From sequence record OZ336096.1: 64,000 nt of DNA; one strand, given 5' to 3'. The notes beneath the pieces are model-generated. The model searched no databases. It had not been told where the DNA came from and was given only the letters and a program-made list of their open reading frames with translations. This DNA is from a phage. This document shows positions 54,721 to 61,612 of this stretch, one piece after another; positions within the stretch are counted from its first letter, which is position 1; every line of letters starts with the position of its first letter. Position numbers and translations under genes: made by a program.

Positions 54721-55077
54721 GAGAGAGATTAAAAGATGACTAAATCACTTTATGCAGTACCAGCAGGTTTAAACGCAGATGCTTACAAGTCATCGCATAT
54801 ATATCAGTATCCAGATGCTACACAGTATCTTATGCTGAACCTGACGCCACGTAGTGACAAATGGTTTAACAGCCCCTTAGCAATTGATGGTGTAGTAGCT
54901 TTTGGTATTCAACGTTTCGTTAAAGATTACTTGATAGACCACTGGAACGCCACTTTCTTTGAACGTGATAAAAAAGAAGCAATTGACGAAATCTTAGAAG
55001 TCATGAACGGTGTTCTGGGCAAAGATGCTATTGGTCGAGAGCATTGGGAAGCACTTCACGACTTAGGTTATCTGCCA

Positions 55078-55960
55078 GTCGAAGTATACGCTGTAGAAGA
55101 AGGCACAGTTGTTCCAATGCGTGTCCCAATGATTGTCTTCCAGAACACTGTTTCAGGCTTCCATTGGGTAGCAGGTTATCTGGAAGACGCTTTCTCTGCT
55201 GAGATTTGGAAGGCTTGTACCATTGCAACTATTGCATTGCACTACAAACGTATCTGTAAGAAGTGGGCTGACCTTACTTGTGACAACGACTTGCATTTAC
55301 CTTATCAGTGCCATGACTTTGCTATGCGTGGTATGTCCGGCTTTACTGATGACGCATTTAACGCTGTAGGCCACTTAACCAGCTTTAAAGGAACTGATAG
55401 CTTCCCTGCTGTATATACAGCTAAACGCATCTACGGGCAGTCTTACCCAATCTCTGATATTGGTGGTTCTGTACCAGCCACTGAACACTCTGTAATGTGT
55501 GCAAACATTGCTTGGGAAGGTGGTAATGAATTGATTGAAGAAGAAAGACGCTTCAAAGGTGAGTTGCAAACCTTCCGTCGCTTCTTAACAGAGACTTACC
55601 CAACTGGTATTGCAAGTGTTGTTTCAGACACTTATAACTTCTGGAGAACTGTGTCAGAAATCTTACCAGCACTCCGTAAAGAGATTATGGAACGTGATGG
55701 CAAACTGGTAATTCGTCCTGACTCTGGAGACCCTGTACATATTGTCACAGGTTATAAAGCAATCCACTTAGAGTGTGCTAAAAAGGCTTATTACGAGCAC
55801 CTAAGCAAGCTAGAGGCAGGTGATACAATGCTGAGCACCGTCCTGAACATGAAGCTTGAAGATATTAACTATGTTATGGCTGGGTGGTTACGTGCAGAAG
55901 GCTATGAAATGGTGGTTGACAGAGAAGACTTTGAAGTAGCCGATACAGTGTTGCTGAAAG
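55078..55960 (+). repeat. tandem duplication, copy 1 (883 bp)
   Basis: Identical to 55998..56880 at 920-bp offset wherever checked by eye. Confidence 0.85.
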
Positions 55961-55997
55961 CTTCATGTTCAGGACGGTGCTCAGCATTGTATCACCT
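55961..55997 (+). repeat. inverted 37-bp junction segment
   Basis: Exact reverse complement of 55818..55854; abuts the palindromic AAGCTT at the end of copy 1. Confidence 0.85.
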
Positions 55998-56880
55998 GTC
56001 GAAGTATACGCTGTAGAAGAAGGCACAGTTGTTCCAATGCGTGTCCCAATGATTGTCTTCCAGAACACTGTTTCAGGCTTCCATTGGGTAGCAGGTTATC
56101 TGGAAGACGCTTTCTCTGCTGAGATTTGGAAGGCTTGTACCATTGCAACTATTGCATTGCACTACAAACGTATCTGTAAGAAGTGGGCTGACCTTACTTG
56201 TGACAACGACTTGCATTTACCTTATCAGTGCCATGACTTTGCTATGCGTGGTATGTCCGGCTTTACTGATGACGCATTTAACGCTGTAGGCCACTTAACC
56301 AGCTTTAAAGGAACTGATAGCTTCCCTGCTGTATATACAGCTAAACGCATCTACGGGCAGTCTTACCCAATCTCTGATATTGGTGGTTCTGTACCAGCCA
56401 CTGAACACTCTGTAATGTGTGCAAACATTGCTTGGGAAGGTGGTAATGAATTGATTGAAGAAGAAAGACGCTTCAAAGGTGAGTTGCAAACCTTCCGTCG
56501 CTTCTTAACAGAGACTTACCCAACTGGTATTGCAAGTGTTGTTTCAGACACTTATAACTTCTGGAGAACTGTGTCAGAAATCTTACCAGCACTCCGTAAA
56601 GAGATTATGGAACGTGATGGCAAACTGGTAATTCGTCCTGACTCTGGAGACCCTGTACATATTGTCACAGGTTATAAAGCAATCCACTTAGAGTGTGCTA
56701 AAAAGGCTTATTACGAGCACCTAAGCAAGCTAGAGGCAGGTGATACAATGCTGAGCACCGTCCTGAACATGAAGCTTGAAGATATTAACTATGTTATGGC
56801 TGGGTGGTTACGTGCAGAAGGCTATGAAATGGTGGTTGACAGAGAAGACTTTGAAGTAGCCGATACAGTGTTGCTGAAAG
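55998..56880 (+). repeat. tandem duplication, copy 2 (883 bp)
   Basis: Identical to 55078..55960. Confidence 0.85.
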
Positions 56881-57450
56881 ATGCTTACATCAACGGCTCT
56901 GCAAACGTTGTAACACGTCCTGTAGCGGAGATTGATGGAGCTATCAAGACACTGTATAACATCTTTGGGGGAACTATTAACTCTAAAGGGTTTAAGGTAC
57001 TGGATGAGCACATCGGCCTTATCTATGGTGACTCTATCACACTGGAACGTGCAAACGAAATCCTGAAGCGTCTGTATGAAATGGGTTTTGCAAGCTCTAA
57101 CGTGGTGTTTGGTGTAGGTTCTTACACTTACCAGTACATGACTCGTGACACCTTTGCATTTGCTGTCAAAGCAACTCTTGCAAGCATTGGTGGTAAAGAG
57201 ATTATGCTTGCAAAAGACCCTAAAACAGATAGTGGTGTTAAAAAATCTGCCTTTGGTGGTGTAGCACCTATGTGGGATGGTGATAAGCTGAAAGCTGTAG
57301 ATGGCTATGGATTCCAGAGTTTTGCGGATGTACTTGACCACCCAGCTTGTGCTTTACGTTTAGTCTTTAGTGACTCTGAGCAGTTCGGTTACACAACTCT
57401 TGGTGATATTCGAAATAATATTGACAAGCAGCTTTAAAAGTATATGATAA

Positions 57451-57476
57451 GAGGCTCCTACGGGAGCCTTTTTAAT
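57451..57476 (+). terminator. rho-independent terminator after nadV
   Basis: AGGCTCC-TACG-GGAGCCT followed by TTTTTAATTT. Confidence 0.8.
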
Positions 57477-57490
57477 TTCTGGAGAAAACT

Positions 57491-57826
57491 ATGAAAATCA
57501 AAGAGATGAACATCAACATTGTCTTAGAAGAACGTTGGGAGAACATTAAGAAACCTGAAGATGGTAAAAAGTTCCTTAACAAAATTTTAGTAGCAGCTAA
57601 AGAAGAACTGACTGGCAAGATTGCAGCAGCAATCACAATAAAAGTCTGTGTAAAAGGTCTTCCAGACAACCACCAATTTGCGCTTGACGAGTTTAAAGAA
57701 AGCTTCTACAATCCAAACAAACAGATGCTTGAAAGTAACTTTGCAGTATCTACAAGTATCGTCCATGACAGAAGCTTTATCCTTTACAAAAATATGAGAG
57801 GTGAGTCATGCAAGCATATTGGATAG
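57491..57826 (+). CDS. hypothetical protein
   Basis: 111-aa ORF after terminator. Confidence 0.4.
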   Translation: MKIKEMNINIVLEERWENIKKPEDGKKFLNKILVAAKEELTGKIAAAITIKVCVKGLPDNHQFALDEFKESFYNPNKQMLESNFAVSTSIVHDRSFILYKNMRGESCKHIG

Positions 57827-57984
57827 AAATTTTACTGTCACTTGGTAGCGTAGCAGTACTTGTTTACCTTCTTTGTAAGTACTTTGCAGAACACAAGAAG
57901 TGTGATTACTGCAACGGGGAAGGGTATACAAGAGCAGGTTGTTGCCCTATGTGTGGCGGTTCTGGTAAAATGTTTAATAAGTAA
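57808..57984 (+). CDS. small membrane protein with C-terminal zinc ribbon
   Basis: 58-aa ORF absent from the supplied track (<60 aa): MQAYWIEILLSLGSVAVLVYLLCKYFAEHKKCDYCNGEGYTRAGCCPMCGGSGKMFNK; hydrophobic helix plus CxxCxGxG...CxxCxGxG; purine-rich RBS-like stretch (GAGAGGTGAG) upstream. Confidence 0.4.
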   Translation: MQAYWIEILLSLGSVAVLVYLLCKYFAEHKKCDYCNGEGYTRAGCCPMCGGSGKMFNK

Positions 57985-58012: not shown

Positions 58013-60379
58013 ATGCGCATGGTAAACGACCACGCAGAAGTGATTAAGAGTTCAACTTCTTTAGAGACGTCTCAAGCACAGATTACAATGACACCTGAAA
58101 TGTTCAGCCTTTTGAGTTCTGGTGTATATACCTTTAAAGAAAGGGCAGTGATTCGTGAACTGTCATGTAACGCAGTAGATGCTCAGAAAGAAGCTGGAAA
58201 AGAGAATATTCCGTTCCATGTGCATTTACCTACTCGTTTTGAACCTTACTTTGAAGTCCGTGATTTTGGAACTGGATTGACTCATGATAAAGTTATGAGT
58301 TTGTACCTAAACTACGGGGCTTCTACGAAGAATGACTCTAATGACTACATTGGTGCAATGGGTATCGGCTCAAAATCTCCATTTGCAATTGCTCAGTCAT
58401 TCACAGTGTCTAGCTATGTTGACGGTGTTGTTAATAAGTATTCTGTTTATCTTGAGAATGGTATCCCTCAAGTAACTAAGCTGACCACTAACCCAACAAA
58501 AGAACCTAACGGTTTAGCTGTACGTGTGGCAGTTGCTGACCACCGTATTTCAAAGTTCTTTGAAGAGGCTGGTAATGTATACTCATACTTTGCTGTAAAA
58601 CCAGAGAGTAATGTGGAGTATAATGATATATTAGCAGATATGGATGTGATTGCTCGTGAAGAAGGTGTCTATGATGCCATGACTCATAAGCATAGCTGGC
58701 GTTCAAGCAGCAATAGAACAGAGTTTAACGTGGTTATGGGTAATATTGCCTACCCAGTTAATATGGAGGCATTACTTGGTGATGATTTCTTCAAAGTCTT
58801 GCCAGAATTTTTCCGTAGGAGCGTAGACCTTGTAAACATCTACATGCCTATTGGCTCAGTTGCTATTGCAGCTTCTCGTGAAGCATTGCAGATGAATGAT
58901 ACGACAAAAAATGTTATCATTGAGGCTACTAAAAAGATAACTGAAGCGATTACAAAGGATGTTATCAAGAAAGTTAATAGTCAACCTACACTCATGGATG
59001 CTGCACAGGCTTATGCTGAGTTACGCTTGAACTCACGAGAGATGTTTAATGCTGTGTGTCCAAAGCTAGAGTGGGGAGGTGTTAAGCTTGATTCTCTGGA
59101 AGAAGAATTACTAAACATTCGTCGTGGAATTATCTACGCAGAAGACGGCTCAGTCATTTACGAACGTGACGGTAAAGGCAATATTAAGGTTGATAGGAAC
59201 GGGAACAATATACCTAAAGTAGACTACCTTTATGACCCAGTTGCTTATGTCAAGTTCAACTCTTTAGAGAGTAAGATTCGTGCAACATCGCTTTCCTACA
59301 CTCAAGAGGCAAGTATGTTCAATATCTTTGGCGCAATGCGTAAAAGCCAAATTGAACAGTTTTTGTTTGTTATAAACGACCGTCGCAATAAAAATGGTAC
59401 TGAGAAGACTGTAGGACGCAATCAGATTCTGCGTGGTGCATGTCGAGACTATGCCAGTGAGTCTAGTCTGTTTCACAGATACAACGGTATCGTCTTTGTA
59501 TTCTCGACTGAAAAAGAGTTAGACAACCTAATCAATCTGCACAAACTTGATAAAAGCTTGTTAAAGATTGTGAAGATGTCTGATAAGGAACATCATTATC
59601 AGCGTAAAGAAGCTGTAAGAGGTGTTGTAAAACTTTGGAAAGCTGTTCCAGCAGAAGGTGTAGCTTCATACAAAGAGGTGTCAGAAGACTTAGATACGAT
59701 TGAAGAGCCTCAGCTTTATATTAAGGCAGTAGGCGACACAGTTGATGGCGAATGTTTTTGCTCATCTCCAGAAGATGTAGCTAAGTCAGTTGCCAATGTC
59801 ATTGGAAAGACAGTATATGTTTTCCGAAAAGCAAATTGGAAAAAGATACCAGAAGACTGGATTGAAGTAGATGAGAAGCTCTTGAACGACAGCTTAACTG
59901 ATGTTCATTGGATTAATCATAACAGATATATGACACGTATCTATATGAATGGTGTCCTCGACCTTACAAGCAGTTGGATTATTGCCAGAAACTTTACGTT
60001 CAATAACAGAAAGATTTCTCGTGGCTATTGCTATTCACGAGACACAAACAAAACCATCTTCTTAGAAGGTAATGAAGATGCTGTTGAGGCAATGTTTGGT
60101 AAAATCCAATACGTTGCTGCACCGTTTGCATACACTTATACTATTAGTAGATTGCAAACTTTGAAAGAATGTCTTGACAACGATACAAAGCTGTACAAGA
60201 AAATCAAGAAAGCTGGTGACCGTATGGTCATTAAGGTGACAAACTACCTTTCAAAAAGAAAACAAGAAAACTTCTTGCTTTCTCATTTAGATTGGAATAA
60301 AGTGTCACCCATCGAAGTGAGTAAGTTCTTGGGCTTTGATGTGAAGTGTGTTCCAGAAGGGACTACAATTTACGATTAA
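58013..60379 (+). CDS. rIIA: rIIA-like protein with GHKL (Bergerat-fold) ATPase domain
   Basis: 788-aa ORF; N-terminus carries GHKL boxes (ELSCNAVDA; DFGTGL; GAMGIGSKSPFA) as in T4 rIIA; rIIA assignment is by domain and size only. Confidence 0.5.
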   Translation: MRMVNDHAEVIKSSTSLETSQAQITMTPEMFSLLSSGVYTFKERAVIRELSCNAVDAQKEAGKENIPFHVHLPTRFEPYFEVRDFGTGLTHDKVMSLYLNYGASTKNDSNDYIGAMGIGSKSPFAIAQSFTVSSYVDGVVNKYSVYLENGIPQVTKLTTNPTKEPNGLAVRVAVADHRISKFFEEAGNVYSYFAVKPESNVEYNDILADMDVIAREEGVYDAMTHKHSWRSSSNRTEFNVVMGNIAYPVNMEALLGDDFFKVLPEFFRRSVDLVNIYMPIGSVAIAASREALQMNDTTKNVIIEATKKITEAITKDVIKKVNSQPTLMDAAQAYAELRLNSREMFNAVCPKLEWGGVKLDSLEEELLNIRRGIIYAEDGSVIYERDGKGNIKVDRNGNNIPKVDYLYDPVAYVKFNSLESKIRATSLSYTQEASMFNIFGAMRKSQIEQFLFVINDRRNKNGTEKTVGRNQILRGACRDYASESSLFHRYNGIVFVFSTEKELDNLINLHKLDKSLLKIVKMSDKEHHYQRKEAVRGVVKLWKAVPAEGVASYKEVSEDLDTIEEPQLYIKAVGDTVDGECFCSSPEDVAKSVANVIGKTVYVFRKANWKKIPEDWIEVDEKLLNDSLTDVHWINHNRYMTRIYMNGVLDLTSSWIIARNFTFNNRKISRGYCYSRDTNKTIFLEGNEDAVEAMFGKIQYVAAPFAYTYTISRLQTLKECLDNDTKLYKKIKKAGDRMVIKVTNYLSKRKQENFLLSHLDWNKVSPIEVSKFLGFDVKCVPEGTTIYD

Positions 60380-60384
60380 AGTAT

Positions 60385-60414
60385 TTGACAAGGGGCTTTG
60401 AAGCCCCTTAGAAT
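60385..60414 (+). promoter_or_regulatory. sigma70-like promoter with palindromic spacer (TTGACA-18-TAGAAT)
   Basis: The 18-bp spacer is itself a perfect hairpin (AGGGGCTT-TG-AAGCCCCT); upstream of the 60459 gene. Confidence 0.45.
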
Positions 60415-60458: not shown

Positions 60459-61568
60459 ATGACTACTAAAACTAAAGCACAGATTGACGCAGAAATTTAC
60501 AAACTGGTTAAAGAAGGCAAGCTGACTAAAACAGCTATTGCACAGAAGTTCAATACTTCAACCCGTTCAGTTGGTCGTGCTGTAGAGCGCCATGAAGCAA
60601 CCTTAAAGGGTAAGAAAAAGATAGCTTCTAAACCAGCTACGAAGACTTTGAAGCAAGTTGCTAAATCAGTTAAAAAGAAAACTGGAAAACCAGTTGAAAA
60701 GGCCGTTAAAGACACTGTACAAAAGGCTCCGGTAAATAAACTGCATGAAGCTATGCAGAAAGATAACAAGATTGAGTACATGATTACTGGTGACTCTGTA
60801 ATTATGACTTACGGTTCAGAATCTGAAATTGTTGAGTCTACTCATCCGAACTATCAAGAGATTGTAGTTCATGTTGTGAAAGGTGAGTTCAAGAAAGCTT
60901 TCGAACTGATGAACATTCGTAAATCTATCGAAAACTTCACTCAGGGTACTATCACAATCAAAGGTGACAAGTTATTCTACGGTGCTGTTGAGATGCGTTC
61001 TACTCTGGTTGACCGTATTCTTCACATGATGAAGACTGGTGATAAAGGTTTTGAACGACTTGTAATGTTCTTCGAAAAACTGATGGAAAACCCATCTAAA
61101 GACTCTGTAGAACAACTTTGGGGATTTGTATCTCACCTTGATGTTGAAATTGATGAAGAAGGCTACATCATTGGTTGGAAGAAAGTCTCTACTCGTGAAG
61201 GCAAGCTGGTTGACTCTCACACCTACAAAGTACCTAATGATTTGGGTAACATTGTAGAAATGCCACGTTGGATGGTTGATAACAACCGTAACGTGACTTG
61301 CTCTCAGGGTCTTCATGTTGGTGCTTGGGACTATGTCCGTTGCTTCTCAGGTGATACAATCCTGAAGGTTCGTGTCAATCCACGAGATGTTGTATCTGTT
61401 CCGACTGATTACAACGATATGAAGATGCGTTCATCCCGTTATGAAGTTGCAGCAATCGTTGATAATCAACGTAAAGTGCTGAAAGCATGGGATGGTAAGA
61501 CTGAGGCTTTGCATGTCATCGTTGGCACTGATGGCGAACTCATCTCTCAACGTAAGCGTGAAATCTAA
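60459..61568 (+). CDS. hypothetical protein (possible rIIB-like partner)
   Basis: 369-aa ORF immediately downstream of the rIIA-like gene; no diagnostic motif recognised. Confidence 0.3.
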   Translation: MTTKTKAQIDAEIYKLVKEGKLTKTAIAQKFNTSTRSVGRAVERHEATLKGKKKIASKPATKTLKQVAKSVKKKTGKPVEKAVKDTVQKAPVNKLHEAMQKDNKIEYMITGDSVIMTYGSESEIVESTHPNYQEIVVHVVKGEFKKAFELMNIRKSIENFTQGTITIKGDKLFYGAVEMRSTLVDRILHMMKTGDKGFERLVMFFEKLMENPSKDSVEQLWGFVSHLDVEIDEEGYIIGWKKVSTREGKLVDSHTYKVPNDLGNIVEMPRWMVDNNRNVTCSQGLHVGAWDYVRCFSGDTILKVRVNPRDVVSVPTDYNDMKMRSSRYEVAAIVDNQRKVLKAWDGKTEALHVIVGTDGELISQRKREI

Positions 61569-61584
61569 TAAGTAATTTCTTAAA

Positions 61585-61612
61585 AGGCTGCTTCGGCGGC
61601 CTTTTTTATTTG
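61585..61612 (+). terminator. rho-independent terminator
   Basis: AGGCTGC-TTCG-GCGGCCT followed by TTTTTTATTT. Confidence 0.75.

Follow-up and report, generated by a model that had tools for sequence, protein, structure and literature searches.

ORF58, a 58-codon reading frame that lies directly upstream of the rIIA homologue in a 64,000-nucleotide stretch of phage DNA (sequence record OZ336096.1; hereafter the window), is a genuine gene under strong purifying selection, a conclusion that is strongly supported by the way its sequence varies among relatives. Its product is predicted to consist of a single N-terminal transmembrane (TM) helix followed by a cysteine-rich tail, and the tail is best described as a putative single zinc knuckle of the DnaJ/Anti-TRAP type, not a full DnaJ zinc-finger domain. 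What such a protein may do is a more delicate matter. By analogy with known modules, it could be an accessory protein, made early and tethered to the inner membrane, whose zinc knuckle binds a protein partner; to this proposal we would give an even chance. The coding sequence was read directly from the window and from a mechanical listing of open reading frames (ORFs); it starts with an ATG at 57808, ends with a TAA at 57982-57984 and encodes MQAYWIEILLSLGSVAVLVYLLCKYFAEHKKCDYCNGEGYTRAGCCPMCGGSGKMFNK. The features of the gene are listed below.

57808..57984, + strand: ORF58 coding sequence, 58 amino acids (aa) plus stop codon
57796..57805, + strand: Shine-Dalgarno (SD) region GAGAGGTGAG, two bases 5' of the ORF58 ATG
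57820..57876, + strand: predicted single TM helix, codons 5-23 (WIEILLSLGSVAVLVYLLC), called from hydropathy, charge and AlphaFold2 models
57901..57966, + strand: two CxxCxGxG motifs, codons 32-53, with C32 and C35 in the first and C46 and C49 in the second; predicted single tetra-Cys zinc knuckle

The window belongs to the genus Felixounavirus of the subfamily Ounavirinae. The kilobase around ORF58 is 97-98% identical to Escherichia coli O157 typing phages and matched more than 250 records, some 230 of which reach at least 90% identity; by far the most are Felix O1-group phages of Escherichia, Salmonella, Shigella and Citrobacter. The first-pass annotation of this DNA had called the ORF unannotated. 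It is indeed absent from the default ORF list, which omits frames below a cut-off of 60 aa, but in public relatives the gene is annotated: ORFs that are 93-100% identical to ORF58 are found in more than 200 Felixounavirus records. For example, it appears as a ‘putative membrane protein, similar to Felix01p243’ in the XTG1 record, as a ‘hypothetical protein’ in typing phage 1 and, with 56 of 58 residues identical, as the ‘putative membrane protein’ bas63_0083 (gp83) of phage JohannRWettstein/Bas63. ORF58 is a full-length member of PHROG 3931, a family of unknown function (E=1.8e-33, 115 bits, residues 1-58 on profile positions 1-59 of 59), and the GenBank note of phage phiEa21-4 already ties its orthologue, gp117, to RB49p046.

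Selection on the reading frame can be read from 18 Felixounavirus sequences, in which the ratio of nonsynonymous to synonymous substitution rates (dN/dS, Nei-Gojobori) of ORF58 is 0.070, against 4.1 when the same nucleotides are read in an alternative frame. The neighbouring genes ORF111 and rIIA give 0.09 and 0.25. Within ORF58 the ratio is 0.14 for the helix and 0.04 for the Cys-rich part (codons 28-58), and in the zinc region a dS of 0.61 is accompanied by a dN of 0.023. Position is conserved as well as sequence. An intact ORF58 lies 28-62 nt upstream of rIIA in all 24 Ounavirinae loci (rIIA identities of 63-99%), which were retrieved independently of ORF58, through rIIA. The placement of the ORF directly upstream of rIIA was thus correctly noted at first pass, the distance from the ORF58 stop to the rIIA start being 28 nt in the window, and conservation of the frame and of the Cys positions, which had been proposed as a check, is found in relatives. 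The purine-rich stretch taken for a ribosome-binding site also fares well: GAGGTGA, inside GAGAGGTGAG, is complementary to the 3' end of the 16S rRNA, and SD-like purine runs stand at an equal distance in all relatives examined (XTG1, TP1, SUSP1, HP1, JSE, Arno18 and phiEa21-4). That this is a strong SD site is strongly supported. RNA structure around the start is not unusual (z=-0.13). Some Felixounavirus records and assemblies are frameshifted in ORF58 (proteins P0003 and P0005-P0007). In phiWec172 (L081, 409-600), for instance, there is a 1-nt deletion in the G-run AACGGGGAAGGG at codons 37-38. These alleles are either homopolymer sequencing errors or natural null alleles.

Orthologues of 52-60 aa with equal architecture and place are found in Suspvirus SUSP1, Mooglevirus HP1 and the unclassified Pectobacterium phage Arno18, and in Kolesnikvirus phiEa21-4 gp117 immediately precedes rIIA, with which (as gp1) that record opens. 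Krischvirus, the RB49/JSE-type T4-like phages, carry a look-alike of 52-59 aa with a helix followed by CxxCxGxG-x6-CxxCxGxG. This ORF overlaps the stop codon of the nrdH glutaredoxin gene by 11 nt, a position that is kept among diverged members (L005, 3995-4153; L077, L079 and L080, 4001-4177). Across genera the architecture is maintained at only 27-55% identity, and the only residues invariant in 14 diverse members are M1, C32, C35, G37, C46, C49, G51 and G53; G39 is invariant in all members but SUSP1, which has Asp. Outside the Ounavirinae, such an ORF was found upstream of rIIA in none of ten loci. T4 rIIA.1, which holds an equal position relative to rIIA, was considered and rejected as unrelated, having no Cys and no TM helix.

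Wider searches return the motif and not the protein. Word-indexed protein searches, run with the single protein and with two alignments, found only small ORFs of Ounavirinae and Krischvirus and generic multi-repeat proteins. An exhaustive profile search gave 1356 matches, nearly all with 2-14 CxxCxGxG repeats in other architectures, and these share the motif but say nothing about function. Viral-contig loci beyond the Ounavirinae that were seeded with the motif (L018-L028) proved to encode DnaJ, portal-like or large unrelated proteins, and tblastn matches in S-RIM2 and Vibrio K279 were set aside for their different architecture. The searches also brought up a large unannotated bacterial and metagenomic class (P0037-P0151) that combines an N-terminal signal peptide or TM helix with 2-14 CxxCxGxG repeats; part of this class has clear signal-peptidase sites, implying an extracytoplasmic CxxCxGxG motif.

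The hydrophobic N-terminal helix described at first pass is well founded. The best 19-residue window, residues 5-23, has a mean Kyte-Doolittle hydropathy of 2.16, within a range of 1.9-3.05 for the 14 family members, and two AlphaFold2 runs, made with 7- and 14-sequence alignments (mean pLDDT of 77), place a helix at residues 3-28 and 4-26, followed by short beta-hairpins. Charge can be used to orient this helix. No member of the 14 has a Lys or Arg before it, while 2-6 such residues follow it (six in ORF58), and an acidic residue (E7, E4 or D2) is located at or before its start in 12 of the 14. Arno18 has none, and L060 has no acidic residue in the N-flank count, yet keeps E7. Because the distribution of Lys and Arg follows the positive-inside rule, the protein is predicted to be oriented N-out/C-in, which would leave the Cys-rich tail in the cytoplasm.

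The 27-residue tail has the pattern CDYCNGEG-x6-CPMCGGSG, with motifs at C32-G39 and C46-G53. Ten of the 14 members have 6 residues between the motifs, three have 7 and one has 8. When all 64 kb of the window were scanned in six frames, no further uninterrupted CxxCxGxG appeared, the one other match holding a stop codon, so the pair in ORF58 is not a product of chance. The DnaJ resemblance noticed at first pass is borne out by profile comparison: the family profile matches the cysteine-rich domain (CRD) of E. coli DnaJ among Protein Data Bank (PDB) sequences (1exk, E=2.7e-9), and next to it DNAJA3 (2ctt, E=6e-6) and the Bacillus licheniformis Anti-TRAP (3lcz, E=3e-4). When seven members were compared with Pfam, all seven matched DnaJ_CXXCXGXG (PF00684; best E=5.8e-5) and six matched DUF5351, in each case below threshold; Anti-TRAP (PF15777) was matched by two of the seven at E of at least 0.03. 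In NCBIfam, ORF58 has only weak matches, to DnaJ and RtpA. The top fold matches of the models are Anti-TRAP (by Foldseek) and the DnaJ CRD, all of them weak, while weak matches to Q-antiterminator and Lar proteins were discarded as generic CxxC matches. The ‘double’ zinc finger of the first-pass annotation needs correction at this point. Two motifs are certainly present, but since DnaJ uses four motifs for two zinc centres, an ORF58 monomer could form only one tetra-Cys site, which amounts to half a DnaJ CRD and, in spacing and predicted fold, comes nearest to the single-zinc knuckle of Anti-TRAP.

The gene is embedded in a compact neighbourhood, the features of which are as follows.

57421..57448, + strand: promoter-like site TTGACA-16-TATGAT at the 3' end of nadV, matching the sigma-70 consensus at 11 of 12 positions
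57449..57472, + strand: terminator-like hairpin AAGAGGCTCC-TACG-GGAGCCTTTT plus T-run, following nadV, with a 10-bp GC-rich stem
57491..57826, + strand: ORF111, 111 aa, phrog_4262 (E=3.2e-68)
58013..60379, + strand: rIIA homologue, 788 aa, phrog_612 (E=1.2e-189), the next gene after ORF58
60385-60414: promoter-like site before rIIB, by consensus match
60459..61568, + strand: rIIB homologue, 369 aa, phrog_609 (E=1.6e-89)
61582..61605, + strand: terminator-like hairpin after rIIB, closing the ORF111-ORF58-rIIA-rIIB unit

From these consensus matches we infer a terminator-bounded unit, ORF111-ORF58-rIIA-rIIB, with early sigma-70 expression. The hairpin behind nadV is stable (-16.6 kcal/mol, z=-4.3) and directly abuts the promoter-like site. 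A transcript that starts about 7 nt past the -10 hexamer would retain no more than 4 bp of the stem (-5.4 kcal/mol), and because the predicted start lies inside the stem, such transcripts should escape the termination that ends nadV; plausibly, they run on into ORF111, ORF58 and rIIA. In SUSP1, with an rIIA about 64% identical, the hexamers and their spacing are identical (L003, 3402-3429), as is the 24-nt hairpin; the promoter/hairpin block spans L003 3402-3453 and a terminator follows rIIB at L003 7833-7850. This preservation of the abutting pair suggests a conserved terminator/promoter switch. Arno18 likewise has equivalent hairpins before the gene, and in phiEa21-4 the annotation places a terminator between nadV and this block of genes. 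A search of the literature found no functional study, transcriptome or proteome covering the ORF58 gene, and no transcriptome of this phage group.

The last 19 nt of ORF111 overlap the first 19 nt of ORF58, an overlap that is identical in SUSP1 and HP1, and translational coupling of the two genes is probable. The ORF111 homologue of phiEa21-4, gp116, precedes gp117 with an 11-nt gap and no overlap. For ORF111 itself, PHROGs, Pfam and NCBIfam gave no function-bearing family beyond phrog_4262, and no significant match was found among PDB sequences. It is otherwise the constant upstream neighbour of ORF58, being missing only in Arno18. The gap between nadV and ORF111 is variable. It is empty in the window (57473-57490) and elsewhere is occupied by an ORF of 114 aa (Bas63 and typing phage 1), 71 aa (SUSP1/HP1) or 153 aa (phiEa21-4); its coordinates in the relatives are L002 3092-3436, L003 3472-3687, L034 11509-11853 and L075 3038-3499.

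Two further observations concern the window at large. The nicotinamide phosphoribosyltransferase gene nadV (54736-57437) is interrupted by a perfect direct repeat of 883 nt, with copies at 55078-55960 and 55998-56880 (offset 920). Between the copies stands a 37-nt filler (55961-55997), which matches the reverse complement of 55818-55854 exactly. If one 920-nt unit is taken out, the result is a 593-aa NadV that is collinear with relatives, all of which have a single 1782-nt gene. The duplication stems either from template switching or from the assembly. In the window ARAGORN detected no tRNA gene; a tRNA cluster is present in Bas63 and other Felixounavirus genomes, and evidently the window does not cover that part of the genome.

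A genome-wide insertion screen gives some indication of when the gene is needed. In the PhageMaP preprint (doi 10.1101/2024.10.10.617714), barcodes with stop codons in all frames were inserted throughout Bas63 and fitness was scored on many hosts. Scores for gp83 were taken from five defence-system sheets, and all values are positive: fitness is positive on S17, MG1655, TerY-P and AVAST type 4, and on a further defence sheet in which the NAD-salvage genes g79/g80 are required (doi 10.1101/2024.10.10.617714). On qatABCD hosts the gp83 scores are +0.77/+0.66/+0.81, against -1.26/-1.30/-1.61 for rIIA (g84) and -1.05/-2.46/-2.45 for rIIB (g85) (doi 10.1101/2024.10.10.617714). As far as these sheets go, the positive scores make gp83 dispensable in the laboratory and, given the negative values of rIIA and rIIB on qatABCD, unnecessary for the single rII phenotype that has been measured in the genus. 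Among defence-system models, PADLOC gave no match to ORF58 at E up to 1.

Taken together, the data can be accommodated in the following scheme. A sigma-70-type promoter with its start inside the terminator would allow early transcription of ORF111-ORF58-rIIA. The helix would then insert into the inner membrane N-out/C-in, with the zinc knuckle facing the reducing cytoplasm, where the tail would fold around one zinc to make a small protein-binding surface. Tethered to the membrane, it might serve the phage early in infection by capturing, sequestering or modulating a protein of the host or of the phage itself. Its function would be conditional, needless on laboratory hosts, on the five defence hosts and for the rIIA/rIIB counter-defence against QatABCD. 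The protein-binding role is proposed because the known CxxCxGxG modules that lack a J domain, as in the Anti-TRAP-TRAP and FIP-FtsH5 pairs, bind proteins, and the zinc centres of DnaJ, which bind substrate and DnaK, offer a further analogy for the knuckle as a binding surface.

Several points weigh against this scheme. The case for protein binding is one of analogy and points to no particular target, and the scheme offers no functional reason for the conserved place of ORF58 beside rIIA. The orientation of the helix is also less secure than the Lys and Arg totals make it appear: in the Suspvirus- and Mooglevirus-type orthologues, P0009, P0017 and L060, acidic residues outweigh basic ones in the C flank next to the membrane, and for this reason the topology call rests on total counts. 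Extracytoplasmic versions of the motif do exist, as many bacterial proteins have a signal peptide followed by CxxCxGxG repeats. Finally, the curated models are not reached by ORF58 itself, which scores 17.1 bits against a cut-off of 32.7 for PF00684 (E=0.0065), falls below threshold for DUF5351 (E=0.0023) and scores 11 bits against a cut-off of 65 for RtpA (NF058604, E=0.36).

A bolder version of the scheme would make ORF58 a phage membrane-tethered counterpart of Anti-TRAP or FIP that docks on a quality-control machine of the host, in or near the inner membrane, and inhibits or redirects it early in infection, with FtsH and clients of DnaK/DnaJ as speculative candidate targets. If true, ORF58 would represent a host-takeover factor of a new class, one that is conserved in both Ounavirinae and Krischvirus. 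The pointers towards it are the architecture shared with FIP and nonsignificant PDB matches to FtsHi zinc-finger subunits, and we regard it as a long shot. The matches in question, obtained with the profile and the models, are to 8xku_R (EMB2737) and 8xks_C, zinc-finger-type subunits of plastid Ycf2/Orf2971-FtsHi complexes. Alongside the FIP-FtsH5 pair, they are best treated as a lead, not as evidence, for a connection with FtsH.

The neighbourhood invites a different reading, in which ORF58 is a dedicated rII partner: RIIA and RIIB themselves lack a membrane helix, and the small protein would anchor them to the inner membrane or regulate them there. It would explain why the gene stands close upstream of rIIA in every Ounavirinae genome examined and shares a terminator-bounded unit with it. 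However, an obligate partner would be expected beside rIIA wherever rIIA occurs and to be equally essential under the same conditions, and ORF58 is neither. Disruption of gp83 leaves fitness positive on qatABCD in the sheets described above, where loss of rIIA or rIIB is strongly negative; none of the ten rIIA loci outside the Ounavirinae has such an ORF, T4 rIIA.1 being unrelated; and the Krischvirus look-alike adjoins nrdH, far from rII. For these reasons the link to rIIA looks like synteny of a lineage rather than an obligate partnership, and a dedicated rII role is, in our estimation, improbable.

An equally improbable reading gives ORF58, as a small membrane protein, a role in lysis timing, in superinfection exclusion or in membrane integrity, with the helix as the active part and a zinc tail that only regulates or stabilises it. 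Exclusion and lysis-control factors are numerous among phage proteins of this size class, and ORF58, very small and single-pass, is encoded in an early region, beside genes annotated as ‘membrane integrity protector’. Such a role would be invisible in plaque and fitness screens done without competing phages and so would fit the PhageMaP scores. It sits poorly with the pattern of selection, which is stronger on the zinc tail than on the helix and places the invariant residues in the tail. Nor is there an endolysin or spanin neighbour, the holins of Bas63 being elsewhere (g29 and g153) and its spanins a few kilobases downstream, and no holin, antiholin or exclusion family was matched in PHROGs or Pfam.

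If the topology were reversed to N-in/C-out, the two CxxC pairs could instead form a periplasmic thiol-disulfide or redox module in place of a cytoplasmic zinc site. In its favour are the acidic C flank beside the helix and the bacterial proteins that pair a cleavable signal peptide with CxxCxGxG repeats, both mentioned above, and the overlap of the Krischvirus look-alike with a glutaredoxin gene; oxidoreductase activity has also been reported for DnaJ-type zinc fingers (PMC8262869). Against it stand the absence of Lys and Arg before the helix in all 14 members and their presence after it, the acidic N side in 12 of them, an invariant Gly pattern that is that of a zinc-binding motif and not of a thioredoxin-type CxxC, and the lack of nrdH adjacency in Ounavirinae. 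We consider this reading less probable still than the previous two. The idea that ORF58 is not a gene at all, only a by-product of regulatory RNA or DNA constraint upstream of rIIA, could draw on the few frameshifted database entries but is effectively refuted by frame-specific purifying selection (0.07 against 4.1), a high dS with a low dN in the zinc region, an architecture kept at low identity, a conserved SD site and an ordinary RNA structure at the start.

Returning to the membrane-tethered knuckle, its immediate value lies in correct annotation, as a membrane-anchored zinc-knuckle protein of the DnaJ/Anti-TRAP type, and not in new biology. The gene is already catalogued, its motif class is well known and the membrane-anchored two-motif form has already been described in plants; a specialist would find ORF58 unsurprising, and no long-standing question is made testable through it. 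Nonetheless, it is a real small phage gene that was missed by an ORF-length cut-off of the kind that routinely drops small proteins. It is conserved across a phage subfamily used in Salmonella and E. coli diagnostics and biocontrol, and it adjoins the rII genes, whose mechanism is poorly understood. It is also easy to approach by experiment, being very small and consistently paired with ORF111 and rIIA/B. If a partner were identified, it could reveal an inner-membrane host target and a minimal membrane-tethered binding module.

Among known systems, type I DnaJ/Hsp40 (1exk, PF00684) provides the namesake of the motif. It has four motifs that form two interleaved zinc centres, together with a J domain and a C-terminal substrate-binding domain, whereas ORF58, with two motifs only, has half of a cysteine-rich domain. 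No match to a J domain was found in ORF58 with Pfam or NCBIfam, and the protein cannot be a J-protein co-chaperone.

Anti-TRAP (RtpA) of Bacillus (2bx9, 3lcz, 3ld0; PF15777) is closer in scale. Like ORF58 it is very small (53 versus 58 aa), lacks a J domain and has exactly two CxxCxGxG motifs about six residues apart, which in Anti-TRAP make up a protein-binding knuckle; in a hidden Markov model (HMM) alignment, ORF58 residues 30-54 pair with Anti-TRAP residues 10-34 and the 6-residue spacer is equal. Anti-TRAP trimerises and forms dodecamers through its N-terminal segment and C-terminal helix. It is soluble, whereas in the AlphaFold2 models ORF58 has an N-terminal membrane helix and no C-terminal one, and the thresholds of the curated Anti-TRAP models (NF058604 and PF15777) are above the scores of ORF58. 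Its target, tryptophan-activated TRAP, is not known from enterobacteria. The two motifs of Anti-TRAP bind one zinc per 53-residue subunit (PMC2896485), while the zinc site of ORF58 is predicted from sequence.

In layout, the nearest parallel comes from plants. FIP (FtsH5-interacting protein, At5g02160), one of the plastid ‘DnaJ-like zinc finger’ proteins without a J domain, has a TM anchor followed on the stromal side by a C-terminal zinc finger that contains two CxxCxGxG repeats (PMC5915565), and this finger serves as a protein-protein interaction module, with binding to FtsH5 seen by two-hybrid and pull-down (PMC5915565). It thus shares with ORF58 both the single anchor and the predicted orientation, the finger being on the stromal side, which is equivalent to the cytoplasm. 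FIP works in eukaryotic plastids, carries a transit peptide and has been reported from land plants only, whereas ORF58 belongs to a phage; the two are likened by architecture, not by sequence comparison, and their resemblance may reflect convergent reuse of a common motif. The family to which ORF58 belongs is that of PHROG 3931, Felix01p243, Bas63 gp83 and the RB49p046-like ORFs, from which it shows no difference.

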